This document shows positions 3,421 to 23,145 of a DNA stretch of 24,000 bases, one piece after another. The number at the start of each line of letters is the position of its first letter. Position 1 is the stretch's first letter. The notes beneath the pieces are model-generated. The model worked only from the letters and a program-made list of their open reading frames with translations. It searched no databases and was not told the origin of the DNA. The translations under genes were made by a program, and so were the position numbers. The stretch comes from an uncultured Candidatus Saccharibacteria bacterium. GTDB taxonomy: Bacteria; Patescibacteriota; Saccharimonadia; Saccharimonadales; Saccharimonadaceae. The stretch is taken from assembly GCA_937859515.1 (NCBI GenBank), contig CALMAK010000018.1, positions 16,215 through 40,214 on the forward strand, read 5' to 3'.

Positions 3421-3424
3421 ACTT

Positions 3425-4045
3425 CTAGTTGGTAGTTGTTGAGGGGATACTGCTATTTATTGCGCTTCTAATCGGTTGAGGAACTTCCGAAAAACTATTA
3501 TCAATAATTAGGACTGGTCGGTTTACAAGACTCCATTCCTTGCCATCATATTTCATAATAAAACGAAAATAATCTTTCTTATTATTTATAGTGGAGTTTT
3601 TATTGTAGAGTATCGCACCATACCAGTTTGCATTATCAAATAGTTGCGCGTCTACAATCGTATAAGAGTCCATAAGGGAGCCGTATTTATCCTGTAATAA
3701 AGTAAGGGCGCTCAAGGTGGTCCTATCTACAAGCCCTCCAAGATAATCTGTAGTATATGGCATATCCACCGAGAATTTATTTGATTGTAGTGCTCGGGAT
3801 ATTGAGATAGTCTTATTTGTCGAGTCAAATTTTTTATCCTTGGTGCGTATTTGGTATTCCCCTGGTGTTATCCATAGAGAATCACCGTCTTTTATATTGT
3901 CGTATCGTATATCTCCAGCTTTATTCGTGAGGTAGATTGACTCTATATCTTCTGAAATAGAGAAAGTGGCTGAACGTGGTGAGAGGAAGACACCGAGAAG
4001 AATCACGCCAATAATAACACCAATGATTATTAATTTAGTTTTCAT
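3425..4045 (-). CDS. Bitopic membrane protein, type B paralogue (N-terminal TM helix, PEGA-like beta domain, C-terminal W/YFRF domain); last gene of the T4SS-like operon
   Basis: The ORF track gives 3425..4096. I prefer the ATG at 4043-4045 (MKTKLIIIGVIIGVILLGVF...) because GGAGGA (revcomp of 4054-4059) lies 8 nt upstream. The segment ITPGEYQIRTKDKKFDSTNKTISI looks PEGA-like. The C-terminal part (NWYGAILYN...DYFRFIMKYDGKEWSL) parallels the 6015..6617 product. Confidence 0.75.
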   Translation of the reverse strand: MKTKLIIIGVIIGVILLGVFLSPRSATFSISEDIESIYLTNKAGDIRYDNIKDGDSLWITPGEYQIRTKDKKFDSTNKTISISRALQSNKFSVDMPYTTDYLGGLVDRTTLSALTLLQDKYGSLMDSYTIVDAQLFDNANWYGAILYNKNSTINNKKDYFRFIMKYDGKEWSLVNRPVLIIDNSFSEVPQPIRSAINSSIPSTTTN

Positions 4046-4670
4046 TAAAAGGATCCTCCATATCGTAAAACTCAAACTTATAGATGGATAGATCATATCC
4101 CTTCTTTATTAGATAATTAATGGCATCTTGACGATACTGTTCCGTCGCTCTAATAGTTACGATGACCGTCTCTTCGGATGGATCTGCGGGATCATTTTTA
4201 TACCCTATCTTAAATAGCATGTTAGATATGGGGAGCTCTTTTACGATAGGATTCTTGTTTTTTACGGCAATTCCCTTGTTAACCGCTGCGTTACCTGCGA
4301 AGCTTTCGAATTCTCTCACCTTCTTCTGATTATTCTTTAACCACTCATTGGCCGCCTCAGTTTCCGCCTGTAGCTGCACAATTAAAGAAGGGCTAGACGA
4401 AGAGTCGGTTATAGTAATTTTTCTGCTCTCAGAAACAAACCCGTCGCGGGATACTTCGTATTGATAATCTCCTGCTTTAAGATATATTTTTGACCCTGAT
4501 CGTACTATTTGATCATTAATTAATACTACTGCATCGTCAGGTATTGTATGAACAGGCACCTCCACCTTGCCCTGTTCTTCTAATGACCGAGATATGCCTA
4601 TAATGGCGGCTATGATAACTGCTATCGCGAAAAATATACAAATAAATATAACAATCTTCTTTTGTGTCAT
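4035..4670 (-). CDS. Bitopic membrane protein, type A paralogue (TM helix, PEGA-like domain, C-terminal GY...PF motif domain)
   Basis: The ORF-track start at 4700 is a GTG. The ATG at 4668-4670 (MTQKKIVIFICIFFAIAVIIAAIIG) follows gaaagga and lies 4 nt after the stop of the upstream gene. A PEGA-like block is present (IPDDAVVLINDQ...LKAGDYQYEVSRDGFVSESRKITI). The C-terminal AINYLIKKGYDLSIYKFEFYDMEDPF matches the end of the 6614..7417 product. Confidence 0.75.
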   Translation of the reverse strand: MTQKKIVIFICIFFAIAVIIAAIIGISRSLEEQGKVEVPVHTIPDDAVVLINDQIVRSGSKIYLKAGDYQYEVSRDGFVSESRKITITDSSSSPSLIVQLQAETEAANEWLKNNQKKVREFESFAGNAAVNKGIAVKNKNPIVKELPISNMLFKIGYKNDPADPSEETVIVTIRATEQYRQDAINYLIKKGYDLSIYKFEFYDMEDPFNEN

Positions 4671-4674
4671 GATT

Positions 4675-6009
4675 TTATCCTTTCTTCCTGAACCACTCAC
4701 CGCTTGAGTCGGTTATACTTTCACCTCCGGCCATGGGGACTCGTTCGTCCAAGGACGCAGAGGCAATTTTAGAATTAATGCCAGGCACATCACCGATAAA
4801 TACAAAAGTATGACCATCGGATATCCATACATCGCCTGGCTGTAAACTTGCTGCATCGATAGAACCGGCGTTACCTAGATTTTGCCAGTTAGCTCTTAGC
4901 CAATCTCTTTGCGTACCTGTTGGTCCGGCACCCTCTGATATTTTAGAATTGTGATTATAGGTAGGATCGAACCCGCTATCAATAATGAGAGTAGTGACAA
5001 ATCCACCACAGTCCGCGTAATAAGTAGGCGATCCGACGTATCGGCCTGCTGCTACAGCTGTGTCCTGTGCCTTTACGTATTCGGGCTTAGCTTTGTCGGC
5101 CCCAGCGTAAGGAGCGCTGTGATAGTCAGGGAGGACGTAGCCGGATACAAGGCCGGCGAGTCCTTCGGCGTTTGCACCACACGAACCTCCGCTATTACCA
5201 GAGAATTTTTCATAGAAGTCGAGGCCGTACTGCATTCGTTCAATAATACTTCCGTGGCCAGGGTCGGGTACTACTTGGTCGCCAGATATAACGAATCTCG
5301 CATGAATATGTAGTAAACTTCCTTTTCCCTTCATTTCCTCAACGTTGCCGAATTGTCGCTTTGGCGCCGTTGATTTGAGACCTTCGAGATAAGACATCTC
5401 ACCAACAGTGGTTTCGCTACTAAATTGTTCCCAGCCACCATACGACGCCTCCATCTCATCCCAAAGATAGTTGAGCTGAACTAAGAGGCCTTTGTCTCGA
5501 TTTGCGTCATTGTAATCTGCTGGAGTTATGCCGGCCGCCGCAAGTGCTGCCTCAACCCCTGGTCGACGTCCGCCCGTCCATTGAACAATTCCAAAACCTT
5601 GTCCTCCATGATATGATGCCCCTTCTAATCCCCACGGGTTCATACCGTGTGACTCCTTCTCTAAGTTACCCATCATACCAGCGGTAACAACGGGAGATAA
5701 TCCTCTTCCTGTGAAATAATTCCACACCTTTTCGTAATTATCTTCACCAGATAGGCTCGTAGGCGCCGACCCTCCTATTGATCCACCGCCGGTACTACAT
5801 CCAGCATCGCAGGGGTCTATGAATTGTATATCATTTTTCGAGTAAAAATCTGCACGCGCCTCTCTATCCGCCTCACTACAGCCGAGGGCATCAGCGGTGT
5901 TGGGCGCGATGATTGTTTGGGCGCTACTTGTAATGAGGGATAGTCCAACTAAAAGCGCAATGGATGCTATGCGTATTCTTTTCCCTTTATTCTTATCTCT
6001 TTTTACCAT
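4675..6009 (-). CDS. Secreted/anchored bifunctional cell-wall hydrolase: lysozyme-like (phage-tail-lysozyme-type) N-domain plus NlpC/P60-type cysteine peptidase C-domain (CwlT/VirB1 analogue)
   Basis: An N-terminal signal/anchor is present (KRIRIASIALLVGLSLITSSAQ). The motif VTAGMMGNLEKESHGMNP...GFGIVQWTGGRR resembles the phage tail lysozyme family. The C-terminal ADCGGFVTTLI...GDVWISDGHTFVFIGD fits the NlpC/P60 Cys...His pattern. Confidence 0.8.
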   Translation of the reverse strand: MVKRDKNKGKRIRIASIALLVGLSLITSSAQTIIAPNTADALGCSEADREARADFYSKNDIQFIDPCDAGCSTGGGSIGGSAPTSLSGEDNYEKVWNYFTGRGLSPVVTAGMMGNLEKESHGMNPWGLEGASYHGGQGFGIVQWTGGRRPGVEAALAAAGITPADYNDANRDKGLLVQLNYLWDEMEASYGGWEQFSSETTVGEMSYLEGLKSTAPKRQFGNVEEMKGKGSLLHIHARFVISGDQVVPDPGHGSIIERMQYGLDFYEKFSGNSGGSCGANAEGLAGLVSGYVLPDYHSAPYAGADKAKPEYVKAQDTAVAAGRYVGSPTYYADCGGFVTTLIIDSGFDPTYNHNSKISEGAGPTGTQRDWLRANWQNLGNAGSIDAASLQPGDVWISDGHTFVFIGDVPGINSKIASASLDERVPMAGGESITDSSGEWFRKKG

Positions 6010-6014
6010 AATAG

Positions 6015-6617
6015 TTACATTATATCCTGTTTGTATAAATCATAAACAATATCAAGAGGTATATCTTTGCTAGGAGCTTCACTTTTATTGATGGCTATTG
6101 TAGGGGTGATAGTGAATTCCCACGAGTCATCCTTTTTCTTCAGAATGAATCGATAAATATCGTTAGGTTTATCGTTTAGATTAATTTTTCCATAAGCCCA
6201 AGCACCCGTCTCGTGGATAGAAAGGCTTTTAACGGTTATATTACCAGTTGCAGAGTACCTCTTTGAAATCATTTCTATTATACCGGCACGCTCTTGCTCC
6301 AGTAACTTTAATCGATAACTCTCGAGATATTTTGGTGTCACAGTTATCTCTTGATTGTCGTTGGTGTGAAAAGATATGATCTCTTTCTGGTAATTTGTAC
6401 CAGCGATAATGTAAAAATACGCTCCTTTTTCCAGGGTTACGTTACTAGAGTTGTCTATTTTGGTTACTTTTTTACCATCTTCGGTTACGATTTCGACGGT
6501 ATATCCAGATCCACGAAGATCAAAACGTACCTCTCTCCGAGAAAGTAGGTAGTCGGCTCCAGCCCAGATAGCGAGTCCGATGGCAATAATACTAATAACT
6601 ATGATTAAGCGCTTCAT
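6015..6617 (-). CDS. Bitopic membrane protein, type B paralogue (TM, PEGA-like domain, W/YRF domain)
   Basis: The N-terminus MKRLIIVISIIAIGLAIWAG is a TM helix. The segment LEKGAYFYIIAGTNYQKEIISF is PEGA-like. The C-terminal AWAYGKINLN...DIYRFILKKKDDSWEF parallels the 3425..4045 product. Its start overlaps the upstream stop in an ATGA (6614-6617). Confidence 0.75.
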   Translation of the reverse strand: MKRLIIVISIIAIGLAIWAGADYLLSRREVRFDLRGSGYTVEIVTEDGKKVTKIDNSSNVTLEKGAYFYIIAGTNYQKEIISFHTNDNQEITVTPKYLESYRLKLLEQERAGIIEMISKRYSATGNITVKSLSIHETGAWAYGKINLNDKPNDIYRFILKKKDDSWEFTITPTIAINKSEAPSKDIPLDIVYDLYKQDIM

Positions 6618-7417
6618 TCAAATGGATTCCTGTAATTAACAAAAGTAATATTGAAATCAGGAACTTTATAACCAAGGGAGAATATATAGGAAAGAGCAGA
6701 TTCTTTATCTGTCCCGTCAATAGAGAGGTCGGTTGATGAAGTATTGATTTGTCTAATATGAAAGTTATCACGATCCACCCTGTTGAGTCCGCCGACGTAT
6801 ACAAAACTTTCGTTAGATCCAATTTTTACAAGGGCTTTCCGATAACGATCTTCCGACGATATGAAGATCGTTGCTGTAAAAGGCACTGTGTTATCAGTAT
6901 CACCAAGCTGTATCCTTCCCTGTATCATTGACTGGTTAACGGTAATGGAGTTTATATCTATGGAGAGAGTTTTATATTTTGCGCCCAGGTCGTCACTTCC
7001 GTACCGCAGTATTGCTGTGGCTATGTCGTTAGGTATTGAACCAACGTCATCCATCGACTTTGATAACTCGTAACTAAGGTGGGGTATGCCGTACACTTTT
7101 ATCTTATGTATGCGCACCCCGGGTATTTCGGCGTTTGGATCAAGGGATCCTCCGAGATCTGTCGAGAATGCCGGATCTATTTCAATATCTATACTAGTCC
7201 CTTCGTCTGTGATACGTGGAGTTGCAGGGCTATTCTTCTCTTCGGTTGGTGAAGGTGTTGTGGTAGTGGCGTCTTGTTCTGTTGCATCTTTGTTGGTCTG
7301 CTCGGTTGTATCCTTTGTGCTTTTCGGGGTCAAGGCGTAGATAGTGAGACCGATTATTAATATACCCAAGATGACTCCAGTTGCGATTACTATTCTTAAG
7401 GGTCTTTTATCTATCAT
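6614..7417 (-). CDS. Bitopic membrane protein, type A paralogue (TM helix, Thr/Glu-rich linker, globular domain ending in the GY...PF motif)
   Basis: A TM helix is present (LRIVIATGVILGILIIGLTIYAL), followed by a low-complexity linker (TKDTTEQTNKDATEQDATTTTPSPTEEK). The C-terminal ALSYIFSLGYKVPDFNITFVNYRNPFE aligns without gaps to the end of the 4035..4670 product. Confidence 0.75.
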   Translation of the reverse strand: MIDKRPLRIVIATGVILGILIIGLTIYALTPKSTKDTTEQTNKDATEQDATTTTPSPTEEKNSPATPRITDEGTSIDIEIDPAFSTDLGGSLDPNAEIPGVRIHKIKVYGIPHLSYELSKSMDDVGSIPNDIATAILRYGSDDLGAKYKTLSIDINSITVNQSMIQGRIQLGDTDNTVPFTATIFISSEDRYRKALVKIGSNESFVYVGGLNRVDRDNFHIRQINTSSTDLSIDGTDKESALSYIFSLGYKVPDFNITFVNYRNPFE

Positions 7418-7420
7418 AGG

Positions 7421-8455
7421 CTATTGCGTTATTGAGTGATCGCAACCTCCATCGGGACAGAGTTCGACACCACCAAGCCTCATAAACTCTGCCGGATTAA
7501 CAAATTTCGACCAAGTACATCTTCCCAGGGGTAGTTTGGCAACTTCCGGGTTAGTATTCTCGTCTATGTCAACTTCGAAATGGAGGTGCGCGCCAAATGA
7601 ATATCCCGTGTTACCTACATATCCTAATTGATCACCCGCTTTAACAACTTGACCGGTTGTGACGATAATATATCCGTCATCCATGTGGAGATATCTGGTT
7701 CGATATCCATCGGGATGTTTAACATATACAGAGTTGTTATAGTCACCTGTGACTTCAACAGTACCGCCATGAGCCGCTAATACAGGGGTTGTATATCTTG
7801 CTCCGACTAGGTCATACCCGTTGTGCCAAGGTGTTATGCCTCCGCACGATACACTTCCAACATCTGGACGTGGTCCTCCAAATCCTTCACTTACGCGAGT
7901 ACCATCTGCGATAGGATGGACGAAGGTATCATCTATTTGACCAGCTGAGGTTTCGCCGCCCTCTTCCTCATCTTCGCCATTTATTGATTGAAGTATTTGG
8001 TAGTCAATAAGGAATACGGCGATTGCCTGGATGGCCTTTGGATTTTTTACGCCTTCAACTTTTTCCTCATCATCATCTTCAGCTAGCGCACAGCTGGCTG
8101 TAGTTTCTTCACCGTCATCATTAGTATACGTTTCATTACCCTGAAGGCACCCGCTTCCATTTGTTGTAGAATTACCTTGACCATCCGAGGTTACGCAACC
8201 GCCGGCGTTAAATATGTAGTCACCGGTATCGGGGTTACTACAGGAATTTATAAACTCATACAATAGGTTATCTTTGCGGATGAATCCATTTCCGCTGTAT
8301 CCATCCTCATTATCGCCACTTTTTGGCATAAGTTCTTCAATAGTCGCCCCCTCGGGGATTTCTGGACAATCTTCACCTTCACCACTAGCTGTACTGTCGG
8401 CATTACAAATCCAACCTTCGTCTTGTAGGAGGTTGATTGCCTCAGCTGTTGACAT
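7421..8455 (-). CDS. M23 (LytM-type) metallopeptidase with an acidic, Cys-rich N-terminal region; no signal peptide
   Basis: The M23 motifs HNGYDL (HxxxD) and GNTGYSFGAHLHFEV (HxH) are present. The N-terminal ~190 aa are Asp/Glu/Gly-rich with 8 Cys. There is no hydrophobic N-terminus and no Shine-Dalgarno before the ATG. Confidence 0.85.
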   Translation of the reverse strand: MSTAEAINLLQDEGWICNADSTASGEGEDCPEIPEGATIEELMPKSGDNEDGYSGNGFIRKDNLLYEFINSCSNPDTGDYIFNAGGCVTSDGQGNSTTNGSGCLQGNETYTNDDGEETTASCALAEDDDEEKVEGVKNPKAIQAIAVFLIDYQILQSINGEDEEEGGETSAGQIDDTFVHPIADGTRVSEGFGGPRPDVGSVSCGGITPWHNGYDLVGARYTTPVLAAHGGTVEVTGDYNNSVYVKHPDGYRTRYLHMDDGYIIVTTGQVVKAGDQLGYVGNTGYSFGAHLHFEVDIDENTNPEVAKLPLGRCTWSKFVNPAEFMRLGGVELCPDGGCDHSITQ

Positions 8456-8539
8456 ATTTGCCTGGGTTTTTGTAATACCAGTACAAGGCAGGCCTGCAAT
8501 ATAAAGGGGGGGTGTTGTGTTTTGACTGTTTGTGTCTAG

Positions 8540-10543
8540 TTAATACCCCCCTGCATAACCACAATATTGGCTAGAGAAGTTAACCGCCGCACCAACATTA
8601 GTCGAGAGTGCTGATGGTAATTTTGAGAATGATGAAAAGAGGCCTGTAATACCATATCCCCCACTCGAAAAGGCGGCCATCTGGGCATTGTAGAGAAGAC
8701 TACCCATGAAGGTGTAACGGCTTGATGTATCGAATGGGCTGAGCGAGGCGATATCCATCTCGCGTTGGAAGTTCTCACTTTCTTGTTGCATAGCAGTGAA
8801 ATCACCCAACTGATCAACAGATAGTGTTGGTAAGTGGTGCGCCATACCACCAGATGAGAAGAATGCTGCAGCAGATACGCCCAGGACGTCGCCCAACTCT
8901 TCTCCTTGTGCCTCTGGTATGGCATCATTTTGAGCAAATTGTGTTATCCAATCAATTGCGTAGGTTTCAGCAATTGTTTTAATAAGTTCCGAAACAAGTT
9001 CTGATATTAACCATGAGGCAGCAATTTTAATTAGCCCACCAATAATTGTTGCAGAGGCGGCAACGGTTGTTGCCATATCTACTGCCATGGCAGTATACAT
9101 GGCAGTAGGGCTCATGATGACATTACAGGCTGGCTCCGTAGCCTTTGAAACATCTTGAGCAGTACGAACTACAGGGTTAGACAATAGACCATACCCTGGT
9201 GCGAACTTTGTTGATACTCCTGGTTTTGACTTATTAACCCCCATTGCGGCTAAGAGATACTGTGAATCAAGCGCAGATGTCATATTTCCGCCAGAGTTCT
9301 CTGTTTTATTCGTCAACAGTGTTCCTATGGCGTCTGCATCGTCTGCCGTTATACTATTTTCTTTATCCACGCCTGACGCCTTTGCTTTTGAACCAGGGGA
9401 CATAACGACATCCATGACTATAGGAAGTAGTTGGGCTAACTGAATGGCAGCGACACCAGCAGCGACATACCCCGGTGCTTTAACCGTAATACAGCCCGCG
9501 ACAGCGATGAGATAGCCAACCCCTCCTTTCTTTGCTTTGCCAGTCTGTTTGTTGATTTTATCTGTTATCTTGCCAGCAGTTTTCTCCGCCGTCTCCATTC
9601 CAGGAATTGATGTTTTTAGTTTTTTCTGTATATTACTTAAACGTTCTTTGGCGGTCCCTTTTTTATTGGTACCGTCTGCGAGACCACCATTTCTTTTAAT
9701 ACCAAATTTGTTAAAGAGCTTACCAGTTATATGCTTACCAGTCCATGCCTTAACTCGAAGATTAAATGCGCCGCGATGACCAAGGACCTTGCTGGCTAAT
9801 TTTCTATTATCTTTGTTTGCCAGAAACCCGGTAAGGTCCTTTGCCGCAACTCTTTTTGGACTTTTTCCTTCACCCATGTCGAATTCGTAATGACTTGGAT
9901 TTTTCTGAGGATACCCCGTTCTTTTGCCGTCGTACCTTGTTGAGTCACTTGTGCCACCATCGAAGATAGCTGTGACACCTTTCTTTTTTAGTTGGCGGAG
10001 GGCCTTATTTGATATTTTGCCCATCTTGCATTTAATGTTTTTAGTACTATTTGCACAAACGGCATCGCCTTTTGTCATGTTATTGAATACCTTCATGAAG
10101 CGGCGTTCCATTGCCGTCGACGAAGAATCATTGGATATGCTGAAGTTCTCGGTGAGATTAATTAATAAACTTGCAGGTCCGAAAAATCCAGCCAGAATAC
10201 CACCACCGATTCCAAATATAGATATAAGACCAATGATTCCGCCGCGTTTTTTCGCAAATCCTACCGCCTTTTGTAGCCGCGGCTTGTCAATCGCATTACC
10301 GCCGTTACCGGTATAATTCATGGTATTGGGGTTTTCTTCTGCCCTTTTGGTACCACCGCTTAAGTCACCGGATGTACCGTCTTTTTTGTAGTTTTCACCA
10401 CCAAATTCACGTTCAAATGCGTCACGTTGATCTTGTGCGGCATCGGCAGCGGTGTTCTCGGCATCGTTCAAGTATGCACCATTTCCGGCCTCGACCTTTC
10501 TGTCGATAGCTGATTTTTGATCGTCATCTGTAAGTGTTGGCAT
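8540..10543 (-). CDS. Large membrane-associated protein of unknown function (T4SS-cluster component)
   Basis: 667 aa. The order of regions is an acidic N-terminus, a Gly-rich TM helix (GGIIGLISIFGIGGGILAGFFGPASLLINL), a Lys-rich basic region of about 230 aa, and a C-terminal half of Ala/Gly-rich hydrophobic or amphipathic segments. I recognise no catalytic motif. Confidence 0.7.
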   Translation of the reverse strand: MPTLTDDDQKSAIDRKVEAGNGAYLNDAENTAADAAQDQRDAFEREFGGENYKKDGTSGDLSGGTKRAEENPNTMNYTGNGGNAIDKPRLQKAVGFAKKRGGIIGLISIFGIGGGILAGFFGPASLLINLTENFSISNDSSSTAMERRFMKVFNNMTKGDAVCANSTKNIKCKMGKISNKALRQLKKKGVTAIFDGGTSDSTRYDGKRTGYPQKNPSHYEFDMGEGKSPKRVAAKDLTGFLANKDNRKLASKVLGHRGAFNLRVKAWTGKHITGKLFNKFGIKRNGGLADGTNKKGTAKERLSNIQKKLKTSIPGMETAEKTAGKITDKINKQTGKAKKGGVGYLIAVAGCITVKAPGYVAAGVAAIQLAQLLPIVMDVVMSPGSKAKASGVDKENSITADDADAIGTLLTNKTENSGGNMTSALDSQYLLAAMGVNKSKPGVSTKFAPGYGLLSNPVVRTAQDVSKATEPACNVIMSPTAMYTAMAVDMATTVAASATIIGGLIKIAASWLISELVSELIKTIAETYAIDWITQFAQNDAIPEAQGEELGDVLGVSAAAFFSSGGMAHHLPTLSVDQLGDFTAMQQESENFQREMDIASLSPFDTSSRYTFMGSLLYNAQMAAFSSGGYGITGLFSSFSKLPSALSTNVGAAVNFSSQYCGYAGGY

Positions 10544-10567
10544 AACTGGTATTAGTATATCCTATTG

Positions 10568-13268: not shown

Positions 13269-13277
13269 TTAGACTGA

Positions 13278-14405
13278 TTATCGCAATGAGATGACAACTT
13301 CATCTTCATCGAGAGATGCTGACTTTTCGCTGATGCGATGAGCTTCCCTGGCAATTGTCTCGACCGATAAATCAGTATTGCTTGCAAGCTTTATTATATC
13401 AGGTGAGACGGCATTAGTGCTAGTGGTTGTTTGTTCTTCGGGCGCCGGTGTCTGGGCGACTATTGGCGTGTCCATTTGCGGCTCTGGTGCGGGCATAGCG
13501 GGTTGAGGTTGAGTGACCTGCGCCTGAGCTGATAGTGGCTGTATGACAGTCTGGTTCATGCTGGATGGGTACGGATTGAACTGAGGGGCAGCTGCTGTAT
13601 CAAAGGGGTTTGGCGCGGGTGCAACAACGGTTTGAGTTTGAGGTTGCACTACAGCTGGCTGTGGAGCCGGTGTATATACGGGTTGTGGCGCTGTAGCGGG
13701 TGTAGTCATTTGAGGTTGCGCAGGTGCGGGCGTTGGTGTTGGCTGGGCGAGGACAGTATATGGATCCGGTGGTGTATATACGGGTTGTGGTGCAGGCACA
13801 GCTGGTGCTGCGGCCGCTGATTGGAATCGGTTAAGCATTTCTTGGTGGCGACGTTGGTCGGCCTGAGAAATCATATGATTGAGATTTTGTGCCACAGTAC
13901 CATCGTTGTCCAGAAGGTCCTGGGTTTGTTGTGCCTCGTTGAATATATCAGCGTTTAGCGAGTTACCTGATGGATCATGGATGCCACGCACCGACCATCC
14001 GTGGGTATCGGAAAGGTTCGAAAGATAGCGCAGGCGCTGTTCGGCCTCACTGCTGGATATATTTTTTGTTCGTTGTGGCTCGACGTTACGCGGAGCAGCA
14101 ATCTGTATCAGGGTCTCAATACCATCAGGATCCCACATGCGATTACGAGGCTTGAGGTAAAACGACAGAAGAGCTGCCATATATATTTCCATTGGTTGAT
14201 CCTTACGCAGTGGCAGCGCTAGTGCACCAAAAAAGACCACAAACGGCAGTGCAATGACGGCAAGTGGCGCGAATATCTTGAATAAAAGGAAGCCTACTCC
14301 CAGGGCAACCGCAACAATCATCAGATAGACGAACTGCCTAAAGCTGAATGGTCCAAGGAGTTTATCGTCGGCTTCGACGTCTTGAGGCACTTTATAACTG
14401 GACAT
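13278..14405 (-). CDS. PrgI-family / VirB3-like T4SS membrane protein with a long Pro/Gln/Thr-rich C-terminal extension
   Basis: The N-terminus YKVPQDVEADDKLLGPFSFRQFVYLMIVAVALGVGFLLF...LAVIALPFVVFFGALALPL matches the PrgI-family layout (conserved VP.D....DK..G.....Q motif followed by two TM helices). It lies directly upstream of the VirB4 genes, as prgI does with prgJ. The tail carries the repeated PQPVYTP. Confidence 0.75.
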   Translation of the reverse strand: MSSYKVPQDVEADDKLLGPFSFRQFVYLMIVAVALGVGFLLFKIFAPLAVIALPFVVFFGALALPLRKDQPMEIYMAALLSFYLKPRNRMWDPDGIETLIQIAAPRNVEPQRTKNISSSEAEQRLRYLSNLSDTHGWSVRGIHDPSGNSLNADIFNEAQQTQDLLDNDGTVAQNLNHMISQADQRRHQEMLNRFQSAAAAPAVPAPQPVYTPPDPYTVLAQPTPTPAPAQPQMTTPATAPQPVYTPAPQPAVVQPQTQTVVAPAPNPFDTAAAPQFNPYPSSMNQTVIQPLSAQAQVTQPQPAMPAPEPQMDTPIVAQTPAPEEQTTTSTNAVSPDIIKLASNTDLSVETIAREAHRISEKSASLDEDEVVISLR

Positions 14406-14434
14406 ATAGTACTAGTGTAGCATAAGGGTTTTGA

Positions 14435-16759
14435 TTATGGGCGTGATGATGGTGGCGGTCCGCCATTTCGTCGACCGGCTTCACCTCGGGCAACCTTTAA
14501 GACTTCTTGGTAGTGGGCGTCGTTTTCGGCACCAGGTGTTGTTTGTGCTTGCTGGATCAGCTCACCCAGCTGAGCATCAGAGAGATTACCTACGCCAGCC
14601 TTGAGAGACTTTTTAGTTGCAGAACCTTCGTGACCTGATGCATGATGTATTTGTTGCATGACTTCCTGGCCGCTGGCAAAGTTTGAAGTAGTGGTTACTT
14701 CACCAGTTGAGGGGTTAATGTTGGTAGTTGGTGCATTTTCGTATGAGATTTGTGGTGTACCACCACCAGATGCGCCACCTCCACCTCCGCTGCTTGGAGC
14801 TGGAGTGTCAGGAGATGGGCTGCTGCTGCCTGTGCCACCACCTGATAGTGGGTTGCCGCTAAGATCTGTACCGGCAAGCCCTGCCATTGTTTCGCGATCT
14901 CCAACACTCATGAGGTTTCTGGCAGACTCGGTGCCCATGACAGACTGAGCCATAGATTGATTGATAAGTCCATTTGACATGAGGTTACCAAGATTCTTTT
15001 GCCCCGCAAGCTCGGATGCACCAAGTCGACTATACGTCTCCGGGTCTCCCTGTATCTTTGTGAAGTCCGGCTGTATTATATTACCGTTCTCGTCTTTTCC
15101 TGGAGATGCAGTGGAGAAGCTATCGATAGCAGCACTCTTCCCTTTCAGTCCAAGTCCAAGGGCATCACTAGCAAGACTTTGTCTCATTGAGCTGTTATCG
15201 GTAATTGCCCCTGAGCTGGCACCATATACTCTCTCGAGCTCCTTAATACCAGCACCGCCAGCACCTGCGAGGTATCGCTGCATGGCCCGTGCTTTAGTGG
15301 AATCACCACTCTTAATGGCTTTTTTCATTTCCGTACTCGCGCCCTCAATATCTGTAGCACCATTCATATTCTTAAATCGTGTCAGTTCTTGTGATACGTC
15401 CATCTCATCCTGCTTGTCAACGGCGGCCATTGCTGCGGCCGAACCTTTGTCAAGGCCAAGCGCCTTGCCAAACCGTGAATTATCGACTGCCCGCCCAATG
15501 CGACTATTGCCGCGTCTAGTCGCCCTGCGGAGGGCCATCCTGTTCTTAATTCCACGCTGTGCCTCGCCTAGCCTTGAGGTGTCGCGTACCTTGCTTCCAA
15601 TTCTGCCATTTGCCTTCGAGCTCCAGCCAGACAGCTTATTTCCGATCGATCCTGCAGCACTCATTGAATTTTTCAAGAGACTTGGGACAAGGAATAATGG
15701 AACTGTTGCAACACCCATTGCGATAACTTGCATAAGCAGGTTTGGGTCACCAGTAGGATTACCGCTCGCATCCATTGGTGTTGCGGTTTGGTTAATCACT
15801 TCTGCGACTAATGCCGACGCACCAAAAACGACAGCAATTATTGGAAATACCATTAACAAGGCAAGGAACATTTTATACCACTTTTTGAACCACTGTTCGG
15901 TGTTTGGCAGCAGGAACGCGACAAACGCAAGCGGTGAAATAATGGTCAGGGTGGTGATAAGGGCGATACGAGCCACAAGGATGAGTGCAATGAGGAGGAG
16001 CGCGAGAACGGCCGCCAGTATTACCGGGCCAGATATTGAGAGTGCTAATGTGATGCCTCCAGCTAGTAACGCGGCAATTAATGTAGCCCAACCGAGGCCT
16101 GTCAAGGCAGTATTCACACCAGTCGGGTCATCTATAGGTCTGCTTAGTAGAACGTCATTACCGAGTGTGTCGAATAGTGTTTTTAGGCTGTAGCCTAAAA
16201 TATTACTAATATCGACGGCAATTTGACATATAATCAGGGACATATTCACCAAGATGGCTGCAATAATAAGGCGTGGAAGGAGCTTCTTGACTCCGTAATT
16301 GCTAATACCCGTACTTGTTAATTGAGAGAAAATGATTACCAAGAAAGCGATGACGAACACAACGTTTGCGAGCGTTCGCATAACACCCCAGGCACTCTCT
16401 ACGCTGGCTGAGTTTACATATTCAACCTTTATCGATAAAAAGCTGTCGGCAAGAAAATTAAAGGCCATATCCGCAACTCCACCAAGGAAGTCCATGACGG
16501 GACAGACTACCCAACCGATGCCTTCGATACCACATGAGGATTTAGCGGGTTCAACACACTTACTGGCGTCACCGTCCCATTCGTATTCTGCATCCTCACA
16601 CGCCGACTGATTATCGTAATCCTCCGGGGCAGCATAAGACGGTTGAGATATTACTGTTGCTGTTACCAATGCCCCCACAAGAACGAGTGACGCAAAAAAC
16701 ACAGAGAATAAGCGCGAGCTTTTCTGTTTCTGTTTATTCTTTGGGCTTTGCCGTAACAT
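14435..16759 (-). CDS. Extended VirB6/TrbL-like polytopic membrane protein with a ~400-aa C-terminal tail
   Basis: I prefer the start at M17 (ATG 16757-16759, MLRQSPKNKQKQKSS + TM), because the ORF-track start at 16807 lies inside a 16-bp hairpin. A Cys-rich ectodomain follows (CEDAEYEWDGDASKCVEPAKSSCGIEGIGWVVCPVMDF). There are about 6 TM helices, including ISPLAFVAFLLPNTEQWFKKW (TrbL/VirB6-like). The Gly/Ser/Pro-rich tail includes SGGGTGSSSPSPDTPAPSSGGGGGASGGG. Confidence 0.75.
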   Translation of the reverse strand: MLRQSPKNKQKQKSSRLFSVFFASLVLVGALVTATVISQPSYAAPEDYDNQSACEDAEYEWDGDASKCVEPAKSSCGIEGIGWVVCPVMDFLGGVADMAFNFLADSFLSIKVEYVNSASVESAWGVMRTLANVVFVIAFLVIIFSQLTSTGISNYGVKKLLPRLIIAAILVNMSLIICQIAVDISNILGYSLKTLFDTLGNDVLLSRPIDDPTGVNTALTGLGWATLIAALLAGGITLALSISGPVILAAVLALLLIALILVARIALITTLTIISPLAFVAFLLPNTEQWFKKWYKMFLALLMVFPIIAVVFGASALVAEVINQTATPMDASGNPTGDPNLLMQVIAMGVATVPLFLVPSLLKNSMSAAGSIGNKLSGWSSKANGRIGSKVRDTSRLGEAQRGIKNRMALRRATRRGNSRIGRAVDNSRFGKALGLDKGSAAAMAAVDKQDEMDVSQELTRFKNMNGATDIEGASTEMKKAIKSGDSTKARAMQRYLAGAGGAGIKELERVYGASSGAITDNSSMRQSLASDALGLGLKGKSAAIDSFSTASPGKDENGNIIQPDFTKIQGDPETYSRLGASELAGQKNLGNLMSNGLINQSMAQSVMGTESARNLMSVGDRETMAGLAGTDLSGNPLSGGGTGSSSPSPDTPAPSSGGGGGASGGGTPQISYENAPTTNINPSTGEVTTTSNFASGQEVMQQIHHASGHEGSATKKSLKAGVGNLSDAQLGELIQQAQTTPGAENDAHYQEVLKVARGEAGRRNGGPPPSSRP

Positions 16760-16790
16760 GCTACGTTTAATTAAAGCACAAGCGGCGTAA

Positions 16791-16824
16791 TTTAAGAATA
16801 GACCCAACTGGGTCTATTCTTAAA
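16791..16824. repeat. Perfect 16-bp inverted repeat (hairpin) between the lipoprotein gene and the VirB6-like gene
   Basis: tttaagaatagaccca (16791-16806) and tgggtctattcttaaa (16809-16824) are exact reverse complements separated by 2 nt. They lie in the 96-nt gap between the stop at 16856 and the ATG at 16759. Confidence 0.85.
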
Positions 16825-16855
16825 TTATGGCCTATTAGGTGGGACTATTATCTGT

Positions 16856-17707
16856 TTATTCTTCGGTTTCGGGGGTGTAGTTTTTGCTTCTATAGAGCCC
16901 TGAACCAGAATCCACCGCAGTCCATAGTTGTTGCGCTGTTACAGTGTCGCCATCAGGCGAAACGAGGGTGTAGTTCGCAAATACACTGCCATTTTGTTCG
17001 TGAACGTATTTGTTAATTGATTGCAGTGTCATATTTTGTGGCTCAATACTACCGTTACGAATGCCCTCAATGATTGAAGTTAATTCCTGTCGTGAATCAC
17101 TGTTTGGCGCCGTAACACACTCAGTGAGATTATAGGAGACCTCGAGGTTTCGCGGATCAGTGTCATCGGCGGCAAGTGCGAGGATCATATTTTGGCGCCC
17201 AACCATAGAATTAACGAACTCCTCGCCATTAGTAGCAAGATTCTCACCGTTACTATCAACTTCCCAGCCATTTTCTACATTTATCTCTAAGCCATTCGTC
17301 TCAAAAAAATTGTAGCAGATAGAACGCTTTGAGCCTGGGAATCTGAGGTCGTAAGTATCCTCCTCTAGGCTGCTTCCGCCGGGAATAGTAAAACTCGTTA
17401 TATCATCCCAGTCAGCAAAGGCATCATAGTCAACCTCAAGCCCAGAAGGCACACCTACAAACTCGCCAGCCGCTGGGGTGGTTGGTGTAGTATCAGGGCT
17501 GTTGGGTTGTTCTGTAGGGTCTTGTGATGCAGATATTGAAGGCTGTTCAGTCGGTGGCTGTTCCTGTGCACCGGTATTAGAGCATGCAACTAATGCGACT
17601 GCAGTTAATGCTGCAATAACCGGCACGCCAGCGCTGCGCAGTAATCGCTCGCGTAAGGTTGAGTCGTTGTCGGTTCGTGGACTTTTGCTACCATGTTCAG
17701 ATGCCAT
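16856..17707 (-). CDS. Putative lipoprotein; first gene of the T4SS-like operon
   Basis: The signal peptide carries a lipobox (VIAALTAVALVAC|SNT). A Pro/Thr/Gln-rich linker precedes an acidic globular domain. A strong SD (AAGGAG) lies upstream of the ATG at 17705-17707. Confidence 0.75.
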   Translation of the reverse strand: MASEHGSKSPRTDNDSTLRERLLRSAGVPVIAALTAVALVACSNTGAQEQPPTEQPSISASQDPTEQPNSPDTTPTTPAAGEFVGVPSGLEVDYDAFADWDDITSFTIPGGSSLEEDTYDLRFPGSKRSICYNFFETNGLEINVENGWEVDSNGENLATNGEEFVNSMVGRQNMILALAADDTDPRNLEVSYNLTECVTAPNSDSRQELTSIIEGIRNGSIEPQNMTLQSINKYVHEQNGSVFANYTLVSPDGDTVTAQQLWTAVDSGSGLYRSKNYTPETEE

Positions 17708-17741
17708 TATAGGGAGTCTCCTTCTTATTAAAGATGTTACT

Positions 17742-17770
17742 ATTATACATCAAAATTGCAAATATTGCAA
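17742..17770 (-). promoter_or_regulatory. Sigma70-type promoter for the minus-strand T4SS-like operon
   Basis: Read on the minus strand, the sequence is TTGCAA (17770-17765), a 17-nt spacer, then TATAAT (17747-17742). This sits about 35 nt upstream of the lipoprotein ATG, with the SD in between. Confidence 0.55.
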
Positions 17771-17827
17771 TACCTCTTGTGATTTTTATTGCCTGAGGCG
17801 CGGTTATGTTGTATCGTGATAGTAGCT

Positions 17828-18235
17828 ATGAATAAAAAACACATATTATATATAACAATAACGACATTAACACTTGGTCTTGCGACTCTTTTGACGCCAA
17901 TTGCCCCCACTGCCGCGGCGGCTGATTTAGAGTGTGGCGTTTTGCCTTCTTCTCTCTGTAATGCTGCTACAAAGGGCGACAAAGATAAAATTGAGGATAC
18001 GGGCGTTTGGAAATTACTGAAACTGGTCGTAAACATCATGACTGCAGGTGCGGGTATTCTAGCCATCGCTGGCATTATATATGGATCGGTGATGTATACG
18101 ACCGCAGGCGGCAATCAGGAGCAAGTTAAGAAAGCCCGAGGTATCCTAACGAATGTGGTGATTGGTGTTATTGCGTTTGCTGCCATGTGGGCGCTACTGC
18201 AATGGCTATTGCCAGGAGGGGTATTAAATAAATGA
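17828..18235 (+). CDS. VirB2/TrbC-like T4SS pilin paralogue 1
   Basis: The ORF-track start at 17789 is a TTG. The ATG at 17828 gives MNKKHILYITITTLTLGLATLLTPIAPTAAAA|D, a signal peptide. The mature part has a Cys pair, then two hydrophobic helices joined by YGSVMYTTAGGNQEQVKKAR, the layout shared with the other paralogues. Confidence 0.75.
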   Translation: MNKKHILYITITTLTLGLATLLTPIAPTAAAADLECGVLPSSLCNAATKGDKDKIEDTGVWKLLKLVVNIMTAGAGILAIAGIIYGSVMYTTAGGNQEQVKKARGILTNVVIGVIAFAAMWALLQWLLPGGVLNK

Positions 18236-18921
18236 GAAAAATCTTACTTACCGTCGGGATAGTGTTTGCGGGATTATTTGGTGGAATGGTAGGTATGGTT
18301 GCTCTTCCGTCGGGTCAAGCCGCCGCCGCCTGTGATACTGCAGTTTTAGGTATTAACCCATGGTATAAGGGGATGACTGAAGGAACGGGTTCTGACTGTA
18401 AGATAAAAAGTCCTCCAAAGACTGAGCAAGGATTAAAGGAATATATCTGGAAGATTGTCCTCAATGTTGTTGACATTGTATTAAGGGTCATTGCATATCT
18501 CGCGGTGATATTTATCATATATGGAGGATTCTTATATATTACGAGTGCTGGCAACTCTGATGCGACAGCACGAGCCTTAAAGTCGATCATCAATGCATCT
18601 GTTGGCTTTGCAATTGCCCTTAGCGCGATCGCTGTAAAGAATTTCATATGGGACAGTTTGGTTGCACCTGGGTCGAACGTCTTTGGTATACCAGATAAAA
18701 ATGCGGGTCAAATACTAATTGATGCATTAAATATGTCCTACTTTATTGCTGGTGTCGTTGCGGTGATTATGGTAATTCTTGGTGGATTAAATTACGTAAC
18801 ATCATCTGGTGACTCAGGTAAGACAGCGAAGGCAAAAAATACAATCCTATATGCGGTGATTGGTATTGTAGTGATTATCTTTGCATTTGCGATTACGACA
18901 TTTATTAATTCGAAATTATAA
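18232..18921 (+). CDS. Tandem double-domain VirB2/TrbC-like pilin (paralogue 2)
   Basis: The start overlaps the upstream stop in an ATGA (18232-18235). The signal peptide ends in QAAAA|C. Two successive copies of the helix-loop-helix module are present: IIYGGFLYITSAGNSDATARALKSI... and VILGGLNYVTSSGDSGKTAKAKNTILYAVIGIVVIIFAFA. Confidence 0.75.
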   Translation: MRKILLTVGIVFAGLFGGMVGMVALPSGQAAAACDTAVLGINPWYKGMTEGTGSDCKIKSPPKTEQGLKEYIWKIVLNVVDIVLRVIAYLAVIFIIYGGFLYITSAGNSDATARALKSIINASVGFAIALSAIAVKNFIWDSLVAPGSNVFGIPDKNAGQILIDALNMSYFIAGVVAVIMVILGGLNYVTSSGDSGKTAKAKNTILYAVIGIVVIIFAFAITTFINSKL

Positions 18922-18932
18922 GGAGATATATA

Positions 18933-19331
18933 ATGAAGAAACTAAAACAATTATTACTCCCTGCCCTGTTGGTGGTAGGTATCGCCGCATCTGTGGCGGT
19001 GCCAGTAGTGCCAGTAAGTGCGGCAGATCTTGACCCTTGTACGCTCAATCCTGGAATGTGTACCGGCAAGAAGACTGATGTAAATGACATCTTTAAGACG
19101 ATTGTAAACGTCTTGTTGTTTATTGTTGGTGTAATTGCGGTGATTATGATTATTGTGTCGGGTGTACGTTATACGGCATCGGCAGGTAATGCAAACAGCG
19201 TTGCCGCAGCAAAAAACACGCTATTATATTCGATTATCGGCCTCGTAGTGGCGATTTTTGCCTATGCAATTGTCAATTACATTGTGTTTAAGGCAAGTGG
19301 TGGCACATCAGGAGTGAATCCTGGGGCGTAA
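18933..19331 (+). CDS. VirB2/TrbC-like T4SS pilin paralogue 3
   Basis: A strong SD (AAGGAG) lies 8 nt upstream. The signal peptide ends in VPVSA|AD. A Cys pair is present (CTLNPGMC), and the core is IIVSGVRYTASAGNANSVAAAKNTLLYSIIGLVVAIFAYAIVN. Confidence 0.8.
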   Translation: MKKLKQLLLPALLVVGIAASVAVPVVPVSAADLDPCTLNPGMCTGKKTDVNDIFKTIVNVLLFIVGVIAVIMIIVSGVRYTASAGNANSVAAAKNTLLYSIIGLVVAIFAYAIVNYIVFKASGGTSGVNPGA

Positions 19332-19402
19332 TCTGTTCACAAGCGTAATAGAATGTGATATAACATAAGGTATAGTTCAATAATATGAAAGGAAAGAAAT
19401 AA

Positions 19403-19816
19403 ATGAAGAAAACAATTCGAACTGCACTTGCGGGGTTGTTGATGGTTCCAGTCCTTGCACTAGGTTTGACTGTTACAGCAGGAACCCTCGATGCCGCCGC
19501 AGGAACCCTCGATGCCGCTGCACAGATCAACTTGAACGCAGCAAAGCCAAATGGCGTACCAACAAGTGTTGGTGGAACAAACGGTATTTTTAATACCGTT
19601 GTAAACGTCCTATTGTTCATCATCGGTGCTGTGTCTGTCGTGATGCTTATTTACGGAGGTATTCGTTATACAACCTCTGGTGGTAATGCAAACAGCGTTA
19701 CTGCGGCTAAGAACACGATTATGTATGCGATTATCGGTCTTGTTATCGCTATCTTTGCCTACGCACTTGTCAACTGGGTTGTTGGTGCAGCAATGAACGG
19801 AAACACTACTACTTAG
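19403..19816 (+). CDS. VirB2/TrbC-like T4SS pilin paralogue 4
   Basis: It has a signal peptide and the core LIYGGIRYTTSGGNANSVTAAKNTIMYAIIGLVIAIFAYALVN. It shares an identical 18-nt block (ggtaatgcaaacagcgtt) with paralogue 3. Confidence 0.8.
   Translation: MKKTIRTALAGLLMVPVLALGLTVTAGTLDAAAGTLDAAAQINLNAAKPNGVPTSVGGTNGIFNTVVNVLLFIIGAVSVVMLIYGGIRYTTSGGNANSVTAAKNTIMYAIIGLVIAIFAYALVNWVVGAAMNGNTTT
19478..19519 (+). repeat. Tandem 21-bp duplication inside pilin paralogue 4 (encodes AGTLDAA twice)
   Basis: gcaggaaccctcgatgccgcc (19478-19498) is followed directly by gcaggaaccctcgatgccgct (19499-19519). The two units match at 20 of 21 positions and are in frame. Confidence 0.9.
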
Positions 19817-22747: not shown

Positions 22748-23145
22748 ACGTTGGTGCCGCCTGCTGTTCCGCCAGTTAGTGAACCGATGACGAAGTTGAC
22801 GATTGCATAAGCAAAGATGGCGATAATAAGACCAACAATTGCGTAAAGGATGGTGTTTTTAGCTGCAGTAACAGCGGCTGCGTTACCACCAGAGATAATG
22901 TAACGCAGGCCACCCCAGATCAGCATAATGACGCTGAGGAAACCGATAATAAATAGCATAGAGTTGACGATTGTTGTCAGTGCGCCGCCGTCTCCGAGAA
23001 GCGTACTGGGCACATCGCTGCCGCGTGCTGCATCAACACCGCCACGGACAGAACCATCAAATGCACTGGCAATAACAGGAGTAAACAGAACAGCACCAAC
23101 CATAAGGGCTGAAGCGGTGAGGGCAAGAAGTAATTTGGTTGTCAT
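22744..23145 (-). CDS. VirB2/TrbC-like T4SS pilin paralogue 5 (orphan copy)
   Basis: The signal peptide is MTTKLLLALTASALMVGAVLFTPVIASA|F. The core LIWGGLRYIISGGNAAAVTAAKNTILYAIVGLIIAIFAYAIVN is nearly identical at protein level to paralogues 3 and 4. AGGAG lies upstream. Confidence 0.8.
   Translation of the reverse strand: MTTKLLLALTASALMVGAVLFTPVIASAFDGSVRGGVDAARGSDVPSTLLGDGGALTTIVNSMLFIIGFLSVIMLIWGGLRYIISGGNAAAVTAAKNTILYAIVGLIIAIFAYAIVNFVIGSLTGGTAGGTNV

Follow-up and report, generated by a model that had tools for sequence, protein, structure and literature searches.

What is a set of VirB-like secretion genes doing beside the replication origin of a Saccharibacteria chromosome, facing a row of pilin genes and with neither a relaxase nor a coupling protein at the locus? 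We addressed this question in a window of 24,000 nucleotides, meaning the whole stretch of DNA analysed, from an uncultured Candidatus Saccharibacteria bacterium (GenBank assembly GCA_937859515.1, contig CALMAK010000018.1, positions 16,215 to 40,214 of the forward strand; all positions below are those of the window unless a contig is named). An earlier note, made from the letters alone, had described a type IV secretion system (T4SS)-like machine at 3425-19816, and the open reading frame (ORF) listing and profile matches show these coordinates and the gene calls to be essentially right. A minus-strand operon, listed as 12 ORFs (3425-17707), faces four plus-strand ORFs (17789/17828-19816). We conclude that the locus is very probably a conserved, chromosomally fixed T4SS of the Patescibacteria type, derived from monoderm conjugation machinery of the mating-pair-formation class FATA (MPF-FATA) and no longer linked to a relaxase or a coupling protein, and that it is probably essential for life on the host. 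This system has already been published, and every element of the interpretation is in print; the structure of the distal part of the operon and the pilin-bearing Gram-positive relatives described below may be the only items that go past published accounts.

The assignment is carried by the core secretion genes, which we number from g12, the first gene of the operon, to g1, the last; all are on the minus strand. The product of g8 (10568-12412) is a 614-aa VirB4 ATPase of the CD1110/MPF-FATA type. It scores 378 bits on the CD1110-type NCBIfam model NF045971, whose cutoff is 325 (E 7e-113), and also matches Pfam P-loop_TraG (E 6e-28) and, with E 4e-48, PDB entry 4AG5, annotated as a 'type IV secretory pathway VirB4 components-like protein'; Walker A (GAGKS) and Walker B (VDEAW) motifs are both present in the translation. 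Its nearest plasmid-borne relatives, at 30-38% identity, are all from monoderms (Firmicutes/Actinobacteria). The true start of g8 is an ATG downstream of a GTG, and the extreme N-terminal subdomain is missing. The adjacent gene g9 (12405-13268) matches the TrsD model NF041427 (E 1.5e-6) and carries a precomputed annotation as TraC-like (PF26593); over its full length it is 29% identical to a Pontibacillus counterpart (E 1.5e-31). Because positions 2-119 of the CD1110 model align on g9 (E 4e-4) and positions 177-733 on g8, g9 is, on this alignment, the detached N-terminal subdomain of VirB4, which is thus split into TrsD-like and ATPase parts.

Parted from the VirB4 gene by this TrsD-like gene alone, g10 (13278-14405) encodes a PrgI/VirB3-like protein with two transmembrane (TM) helices (PF12666, 43.5 bits against a gathering threshold (GA) of 27, E 4.7e-11); the TM hairpin lies at residues 19-68 and is accompanied by a long Pro/Gln-rich C-terminal extension. 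We call g11 (14435-16759) an extended VirB6/TrbL-like polytopic protein from its slightly sub-threshold PF04610 match, its TM count and its gene position. It has at least six TM helices by hydropathy and a hydrophilic C-terminus of ~400 aa, a TrbL_3 match among precomputed annotations, and homology to a VirB6-like protein of Pontibacillus (E 6e-8); a PDB sequence search returned no match, and the C-terminus matched no significant Pfam family. The operon's first gene, g12 (16856-17707), encodes a predicted lipoprotein (LVAC lipobox) with one N-terminal TM helix. Its AlphaFold2 (AF2) model has a per-residue confidence (pLDDT) mostly above 90 over residues ~80-280, and the top Foldseek neighbours among PDB structures are VirB8, TrwG, R388 VirB8 and PrgL (best E 1.6e-3, TM-score 0.44), which points, at marginal statistics, to a VirB8-like NTF2 fold. 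No ORF of the window matched the outer-membrane core proteins VirB7, VirB9 or VirB10 in Pfam or NCBIfam. Thus the order VirB6-like, PrgI/VirB3-like, VirB4, which the earlier note had taken for a monoderm-type core, agrees with the profiles, and the same order occurs on Gram-positive conjugative plasmids. Of the families it named for profile searches, VirB4, PrgI, T4SS pilins, Peptidase_M23 and Phage_lysozyme2 were recovered and TrbL fell slightly below threshold; NlpC/P60 was not detected in g3 by Pfam.

The four genes facing the operon were called as pilins using PF18895 (T4SS_pilin), PF04956 (TrbC) and NF045849 against family cutoffs. All four, p1 (17828-18235), p2 (18232-18921), p3 (18933-19331) and p4 (19403-19816), lie on the plus strand and score above the GA of PF18895, in keeping with the divergent operon of two-helix pilins that had been proposed. 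By hydropathy, the pilins have a Sec signal peptide and a two-helix hairpin. The second is a tandem double pilin, with two PF18895 stretches and four TM helices, and it also exceeds the cutoff of NF045849, the NCBIfam 'Mbov_0395 family pilin-like conjugal transfer protein' known from integrative and conjugative elements (ICEs) of mycoplasmas, a family that the pilins of the window match; p3 passes the TrbC/VirB2 family PF04956 (28.5 against a GA of 27.9). A fifth VirB2-like pilin, p5 (22744-23145, minus strand), is unlinked to the array, matches PF18895 with E 4e-9 and is 54% identical to p4. Identity among the paralogues ranges from 24 to 55%. Searches with p3 by tblastn against plasmids and by sequence against the PDB returned no match, and the plasmid pilin homologues described below surfaced solely when we inspected the neighbours of VirB4 matches. 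A pair of Cys residues is found in the mature N-termini of p1-p3, and the signal/pro-region of p4 contains a 21-nt tandem duplication (19478-19519).

The operon is tightly packed. Using the starts picked by gene callers in near-identical contigs, the distances are 96 nt from g12 to g11, 29 nt from g11 to g10, 9-36 nt from g10 to g9, 24 nt from g8 to g7, 3 nt from g6 to g5, 5 nt from g4 to g3 and 4 nt from g3 to g2, with overlaps of 8 nt between g9 and g8, 4 nt between g5 and g4 and 11 nt between g2 and g1. The 96-nt spacer between g12 and g11 contains a perfect 19+19-nt palindrome (16788-16827, TAATTTAAGAATAGACCCA..TGGGTCTATTCTTAAATTA) that might act as an operator or form an RNA hairpin. A sigma-70-like site on the minus strand, TTGCAA-17-TATAAT (17770-17742), lies in the divergent control region that parts g12 from the pilin operon (17708-17827); in promoter and terminator scans, the site counts were not above chance.

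Is this a mobile element or a fixed part of the chromosome? The ORF listing, the translations and Pfam matches on identical contigs identify the window as the replication-origin region of a Saccharibacteria chromosome. Among window ORFs of at least 110 aa, no coupling protein of the type IV class (T4CP), relaxase, VirB11 or integrase was found with Pfam or NCBIfam, and a repeat search of the window found no att-like flanking direct repeats, the paralogy of the pilins being its sole signal. Three near-identical public contigs (99.9%; GCA_035328985.1, Logan SRR2107216 and ENA ERZ27240683) add ~9 kb on each side, and no relaxase, T4CP or integrase was found there either. We scanned one genome per species for relatives of the VirB4 and found 571, of which the best 80 all come from Saccharibacteria-type metagenome-assembled genomes (84-96% identity). 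We then used the window proteins in tblastn searches of 49 Saccharibacteria species loci with full 10-kb flanks. The TrsD-like, PrgI and VirB6-like genes flank VirB4 in all 49, dnaA lies within 10 kb of VirB4 in 46 and dnaN in 47, and pilins are within reach of it in about 36. Across 30 of the 49 loci, conservation of VirB4 (83-95% identity) exceeded that of DnaA (72-94%) and DnaN (56-91%). Because the core synteny is invariant, dnaA and dnaN stay close by and VirB4 is conserved above DnaA and DnaN, the locus fits, as judged from these comparisons, a vertically inherited and strongly constrained chromosomal apparatus rather than an ICE. The earlier note had reasoned to a core chromosomal apparatus from the proximity of dnaA-dnaN-recF and the lack of a coupling protein, relaxase, VirB11, integrase and flanking repeats in the 24 kb; both the lack and the conclusion hold, and for relaxase, coupling protein and integrase the lack extends to ~9 kb on either side, with the absence of a coupling protein being a statement about the locus only.

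Directly after VirB4, the operon was listed as having two ORFs, g7 and g6, separated by an 84-nt gap. These form one frame of 1040 codons (7421-10543) that is cut by a single TAA at 8540-8542, and the supposed gap is coding. The frame would encode a giant membrane protein that begins with a cytoplasmic tail and ~3 TM helices, continues through a scaffold and then a Cys-rich middle domain, and ends in an M23 peptidase (~7421-7945; Peptidase_M23 E 4e-22) with intact HxxxD and HxH motifs. In contig L005, which is 99.9% identical to the window (11 mismatches and no gaps over 12.4 kb), the codon is TAC and a single 1040-aa ORF results. Nine of the 11 mismatches fall in 8498-8547, where the window deviates from residues that are near-invariant in the family, and three public short-read contigs terminate at this same site. 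The 119 homologues of the giant protein that we listed (family P0017-P0136) are ~800-1100 aa long, and the g7-like and g6-like parts were on one polypeptide in 40 of the 40 checked. Because L005 reads TAC, the mismatches cluster and alter conserved residues, contigs end at this place and the homologues are unsplit, the TAA is most likely a consensus or assembly error, with a real strain polymorphism as the alternative. The operon therefore has 11 genes rather than the 12 first counted; the tight spacing and the 96-nt gap stand. The scaffold, ~850 aa, is conserved and was predicted by AF2 with a pTM of 0.73; its fold had no match among solved PDB structures, the sole library searched, and the N-terminal domain of g6 matched no significant Pfam family. 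The orthologue in Southlakia epibionticum is SEML1_0007 (PMC10633639).

The C-terminal enzyme of this protein is interchangeable. Among the 119 homologues listed, 38 have an M23 tail, 37 a VanY/M15B tail, 18 a tail of an unassigned class, two each an Exo_endo_phos or C39-like tail, one each NlpC/P60 or M15_3, and ~20 have none. The scaffolds of P0043 and P0044 agree in 849 of 850 residues as far as the motif QSINGEDDIE, after which P0043 continues into a VanY and P0044 into an M23 tail, and this VanY/M23 pair recurs on a second scaffold pair. Overall, there are at least seven tail classes, and the nearest scaffold neighbour bears a different class in 50 of the 119 members. The giant protein thus has, as far as can be read from the alignments, some features of a polymorphic toxin-like protein: a conserved N-terminal region, a fixed junction motif and exchangeable C-terminal enzymes. 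No orphan tail cassettes were found in the window.

The exchange extends well beyond the tail. Compared with the related locus L093, the window shows 90-93% nucleotide identity through PrgI-TrsD-VirB4 and the scaffold down to 7946, the tail junction, then no similarity to 3246, inside recF, and 96.6% identity beyond. The variable distal module (3246-7946, minus strand) therefore comprises the M23 tail, g5, g4, g3, g2, g1 and the 3' end of recF; where the window has this 4.7-kb interval, L093 has a replacement (8490-11800 of that contig) with a VanY tail followed by a lysozyme/CHAP gene that has a bitopic gene on either side. The same break was found in the species pairs L074/L081 and L077/L078 (in L074/L077 from 14358 to dnaN), and the flanks of the swap pairs are 89-97% identical. 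Most of the distal module has a GC content of 38-40%, while that of the core is 45-52%. In these comparisons the distal third of the operon is a swapped cassette with a fixed junction, a feature that possibly goes beyond published accounts. The small ORF clusters downstream of the giant protein co-vary with the tail class. We considered these small genes as immunity genes and rejected the idea as unsupported; all are members of a single bitopic family that evolves fast, and they moved with the whole module, and because of both facts any immunity-type co-variation is confounded.

In the window, the genes of this module agree with the earlier description of two peptidoglycan hydrolases accompanied by several bitopic proteins: besides the M23 domain there is one Phage_lysozyme2 protein, and g1, g2, g4 and g5, like g12 at the other end of the operon, each have one TM helix. 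The lysozyme-type gene, g3 (4675-6009), encodes a signal-anchored, VirB1/CwlT-like peptidoglycan hydrolase (Phage_lysozyme2, PF18013, E 7.8e-18) that also matches endolysin and tape-measure lysozyme families in PHROG; in a PDB sequence search it gave a weak match to the phi29 gp13 lysozyme alone. An NlpC/P60 domain was not detected by Pfam in its C-terminus; the suggestion of an NlpC/P60- or CHAP-like domain there comes from the pattern of Cys/His motifs and from annotations of orthologues, and the L093 homologue has a weak CHAP match. The last gene, g1 (3425-4096), has a maximal ORF of 223 aa, or 206 aa from the ATG at 4045, with one N-terminal TM helix by hydropathy and no Pfam match. It is a paralogue of g4 (6015-6617; BLASTP E 0.007), with which it shares a C-terminal motif. 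Likewise, g2 (4035-4700; 211 aa from the ATG at 4670) shares a C-terminal motif with its paralogue g5 (6614-7417); both g4 and g5 have one N-terminal TM helix, as does g2, which in addition has a weak PEGA-like domain (E 0.0019, below GA). A PEGA domain was annotated from structure in the g2 orthologue, SEML1_0005 (PMC10633639). No significant Pfam family covers the C-termini of g2 and g5. Neither g4 nor g5 matched any family, and a homologue search with g4 returned g4 itself alone; they are poorly conserved, being present in 6 and 2 of the 49 related loci, respectively.

How does this reading sit with what has been published? A region with VirB4, VirB6, PrgI, an array of small secreted proteins and a GntX gene was described across Saccharibacteria, including the TM7x locus (McLean 2020, PMC7427843). 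Transposon sequencing (Tn-seq) of S. epibionticum then showed that SEML1_0004-0019 are essential, pilins included; the composition was said to be one that 'most closely resembles' Gram-positive conjugative T4SSs, with the essential pilins a 'notable distinction' and coupling and relaxase proteins missing (Wang 2023, PMC10633639). A survey of 2,474 patescibacterial VirB4 proteins found MPF-FATA affinity, TrsD, PrgI, VirB6 and VirB2 arrays without relaxases, near dnaA/dnaN (Quinonero-Coronel 2025, PMC12102498), and a 2025 FEMS review sums up the system and speculates on a pilus conduit (PMC12857230). The remark in the earlier note that T4SS-like loci had been noted in Saccharibacteria was therefore true and understated this literature (PMC7427843, PMC10633639, PMC12102498, PMC12857230).

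We propose that the machine would work as follows. The pilins would be inserted by Sec and then cleaved. Hexamers of VirB4 on VirB3/TrsD and VirB6 would pull the pilins from the membrane and polymerise them into a pilus or conduit, and the two hydrolases would open the symbiont's own wall, the host wall or both. The resulting structure would contact the actinobacterial host and support epibiotic growth through the transfer of proteins or small molecules rather than of DNA bound to a relaxase. In Gram-negative bacteria, pilus biogenesis needs VirB4 and does not need VirD4. A pilus has also been raised as a possibility for the present system (PMC12857230).

Tentatively, we would go one step further, to a possibility that we hold to be open to considerable doubt. 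The operon may consist of two parts, an ultra-conserved engine (pilins, VirB6, VirB3, TrsD, VirB4 and scaffold) and a horizontally exchanged cassette that runs from the motif 'Q..Q.(I)NGED' to recF and bears all the wall-active enzymes and bitopic surface proteins. The cassette might then set which host wall can be breached, and so the host range, the pilus might be a feeding or attachment conduit through the breach, and the pilin-bearing, TrsD-split architecture might be an old monoderm subtype shared with Firmicutes and Actinobacteria, not a candidate phyla radiation (CPR) chimera.

Several findings weigh against our interpretation or parts of it. The TrbL match of g11 (E 6e-5, 23.2 bits) lies slightly under the GA of 25.9. 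The VirB8-like call for g12 comes from a predicted structure, with no Foldseek match at E <=1e-3, and its orthologue SEML1_0012, an NTF2-like protein (e4ec6), is non-essential in S. epibionticum, where the genes downstream of it are essential (PMC10633639). If the TAA in the giant hydrolase gene were real, that gene would be inactive in this strain. In the searchable literature, neither a structure nor a substrate of a Saccharibacteria T4SS is reported, and no pilus or channel has been seen. Finally, a distal coupling protein may participate. S. epibionticum has two candidates far from its T4SS locus, of which SEML1_0293 (TrwB_AAD_bind, T4CP-like) is non-essential and SEML1_0142, a 1019-aa P-loop protein with a TraM-recognition domain, was scored essential (PMC10633639, Table S1); the 2025 comparative paper names a non-essential T4CP only (PMC12102498).

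The essential SEML1_0142 also counts in favour of the rival that survives best, a contact-dependent effector translocator that, like the Xanthomonas X-T4SS or Bordetella Ptl, would deliver proteins into or onto the host, perhaps including the hydrolase domains themselves (PMC10633639 for the essentiality). We think this rather doubtful, at perhaps one chance in a few. The swapping of the C-terminal enzyme like a polymorphic toxin module (M23, VanY, NlpC/P60, C39-like, EEP) and the exchange of the entire distal module between close relatives speak for such a translocator. Against it, the locus has no T4CP, the hydrolase domains are covalently joined to a membrane scaffold, a cognate immunity gene is not shown, the downstream small genes being a single fast-evolving bitopic family, and on Gram-positive plasmids a hydrolase beside VirB4 is a normal assembly factor of the VirB1-like kind.

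An apparatus for adhesion only, in which the core builds a VirB2-type attachment fibre and translocates nothing, is unlikely. It would account for the five diverged pilin paralogues, for the essentiality of the pilin array in S. epibionticum (PMC10633639) and for the lack of a coupling ATPase at the locus, but the extended VirB6 and two hydrolases suggest a channel through walls, and type IV pili are reported to give adhesion already in Saccharibacteria (PMC12206443). Less likely again, and by a good deal, is a ComB/Ced-like machine that takes up DNA to feed a nucleotide-auxotrophic symbiont. Such a machine would fit a locus that, like H. pylori ComB, has VirB2-like pilins and no T4CP or relaxase, a weak CedB match in VirB4, and a ComF/GntX-family gene 700 nt from the pilin array (see also McLean 2020, PMC7427843). 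We disfavour it because deletion of comEC in S. epibionticum ends transformation and not viability, whereas the T4SS is essential (PMC12857230); the comF-like SEML1_0021 is, moreover, non-essential (PMC10633639). Lastly, we give almost no credence to an ordinary ICE, or the remnant of one, moving DNA between cells: the core proteins are homologous to conjugation proteins and a related Embleya plasmid has the same core with a T4CP and a relaxase-like gene, but the window has no relaxase, T4CP, integrase or att repeats and its ~9-kb flanks none of the first three, the site beside dnaA is fixed in 46 of 49 species with VirB4 conserved above DnaA, and of 109 relaxases in 3,035 patescibacterial genomes few are close to virB4 (PMC12102498).

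The genes around the T4SS locus are as follows. On its left, all on the plus strand, are the 3' part of dnaA (119-994 as listed), a gene that continues past the left window end, a 92-aa ORF without a family match (987-1265), dnaN (1274-2374) and recF (2380-3420), identified by DnaA, DNA_pol3_beta and SMC_N Pfam matches on identical contigs. The 92-aa ORF shares 8 nt with the end of dnaA, lies upstream of dnaN and was annotated as a gene in one public contig; its identity in locus L009 is 90%, above that of dnaA (84%) and dnaN (74%) there, and it has no counterpart in the S. epibionticum gene table. Beyond dnaA, the sister contigs continue with rnpA, yidC and jag. To the right of the pilin array follow, in order, Hsp20, a ComF/GntX-family phosphoribosyltransferase (20511-21176, plus strand, by family match), two tRNA-Ser genes, a 450-aa polytopic membrane protein without a family match (21395-22747, plus strand) and the fifth pilin; the right flank in the sister contigs has an unidentified gene, a trypsin-like protease, a SPOUT methyltransferase, ValRS and FemAB. 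The two tRNA-Ser genes were the only matches in an Rfam scan of the window. Within the 10-kb flanks, hsp20 and comF accompany roughly a third of the 49 related loci, and the gene for the 450-aa protein was found by tblastn in none of them. At the corresponding position S. epibionticum has a membrane-protein gene, which is non-essential, as is the comF-like gene (PMC10633639).

The system matters for more than one reason. It is the first T4SS reported to be essential for the growth of its owner, and the sole monoderm T4SS suspected of making a pilus (PMC12857230). Knowing its cargo, direction of transport and structure would account for the host-dependent life of ultrasmall CPR bacteria. A swappable half with hydrolases and surface proteins and a precise junction gives a testable handle on host specificity, and pilins with the same core in ordinary Gram-positive replicons offer tractable model organisms and bear on the origin of the pilins.

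Among known systems, H. pylori ComB and Bordetella Ptl have VirB2-, VirB3-, VirB4- and VirB6-type components and work with neither a coupling protein nor a relaxase at the locus. Both are diderm systems with VirB7, VirB9 and VirB10, unlike the window locus. The Ptl analogy led to a reading of the small proteins as toxin subunits (McLean 2020, PMC7427843), which is superseded because these proteins are pilins (PF18895). The closest relatives are those of S. epibionticum ML1 and TM7x, where, as in the window, the order is dnaA-dnaN-recF, two bitopic genes, a lysozyme-type hydrolase, a giant peptidase-bearing protein, VirB4, TrsD-like, PrgI, VirB6-like, NTF2-like and a divergent pilin array, and the locus has no relaxase or T4CP. 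In ML1, the likeness continues with Hsp20, a ComF-like gene, tRNA-Ser, a membrane protein and an extra pilin; it is a likeness of gene table and order. The ML1 T4SS (SEML1_0004/0006-0019) differs by a further VirB6-like gene (SEML1_0013), by its six pilins and by the M15/DD-peptidase tail of its giant protein, whereas the window has one VirB6-like gene, four pilins and an unlinked one, an M23 tail and the extra g5-g4 pair. The window also has all features listed for the Patescibacteria VirB4 clade, namely TrsD, PrgI, VirB6 (in the window the VirB6-like g11) and VirB2 arrays, no VirB7/9/10, no relaxase and proximity to dnaA/dnaN; that clade is reported to be free of non-CPR members, with co-option of the pilins from elsewhere left open (PMC12102498). 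By its TrsD, VirB4, pilin array, missing relaxase and position near the origin, the window's T4SS appears to belong to the Patescibacteria type.

The window VirB4 passes the CD1110 cutoff, and neither the window locus nor the CD1110/CTn2 and pCF10 (prgH-prgI-prgJ-prgK-prgL) systems have an outer-membrane core. Plasmids of Gram-positive bacteria (Brevibacillus, Enterococcus) share the window's order of VirB6-like, PrgI, VirB4, wall hydrolase and small membrane proteins. In the CD1110/CTn2 and pCF10 systems, which lie on plasmids or ICEs, VirB4 is full-length (~800 aa), and there are also a VirD4-like T4CP of the CD1115 family and a relaxase together with MobC; in contrast, the window has a split VirB4, no T4CP or relaxase at the locus, a fixed chromosomal place and multiple pilins. 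An 898-kb replicon of Pontibacillus sp. ALD_SL1 (NZ_CP062975.1, 351-361 kb; L087) encodes, in order, two PF18895 pilins, VirB6-like, VirB3-like and TrsD-like proteins and VirB4, followed by a protein of 1050 aa that combines NlpC/P60 with an M23 domain at its C-terminus, with no annotated relaxase adjoining. Its VirB4 is 36% identical to that of the window and its TrsD 29% across the full length, but its pilins are co-directional with the core, where those of the window are divergent, and the giant-protein scaffold has no detectable homology. Priestia megaterium pFDU301A (L091) has a pilin, PrgI-like and TrsD-like genes and an interrupted VirB4, with a T4CP-like ORF 2.4 kb away, and both this locus and the one on the Pontibacillus megaplasmid are embedded among flagellar and chemotaxis genes. 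The Embleya plasmid (L088) has a pilin (72 bits), a VirB6-like gene, a PrgI/TrsD fusion, VirB4, a T4CP and a relaxase-like gene; in Miltoncostaea (L092), with a TrsD-like and VirB4 core, a pilin was not found. PF18895 pilins thus lie beside a TrsD/VirB4 core in three of these four Firmicute and Actinobacterial replicons, and the view, also taken in the earlier note, that Gram-positive T4SSs normally lack VirB2 pilins is too general. Because such pilins flank the core on replicons of both phyla, the combination is not confined to CPR bacteria, and the union of pilins with a monoderm core in the window need not be a CPR-specific chimera.

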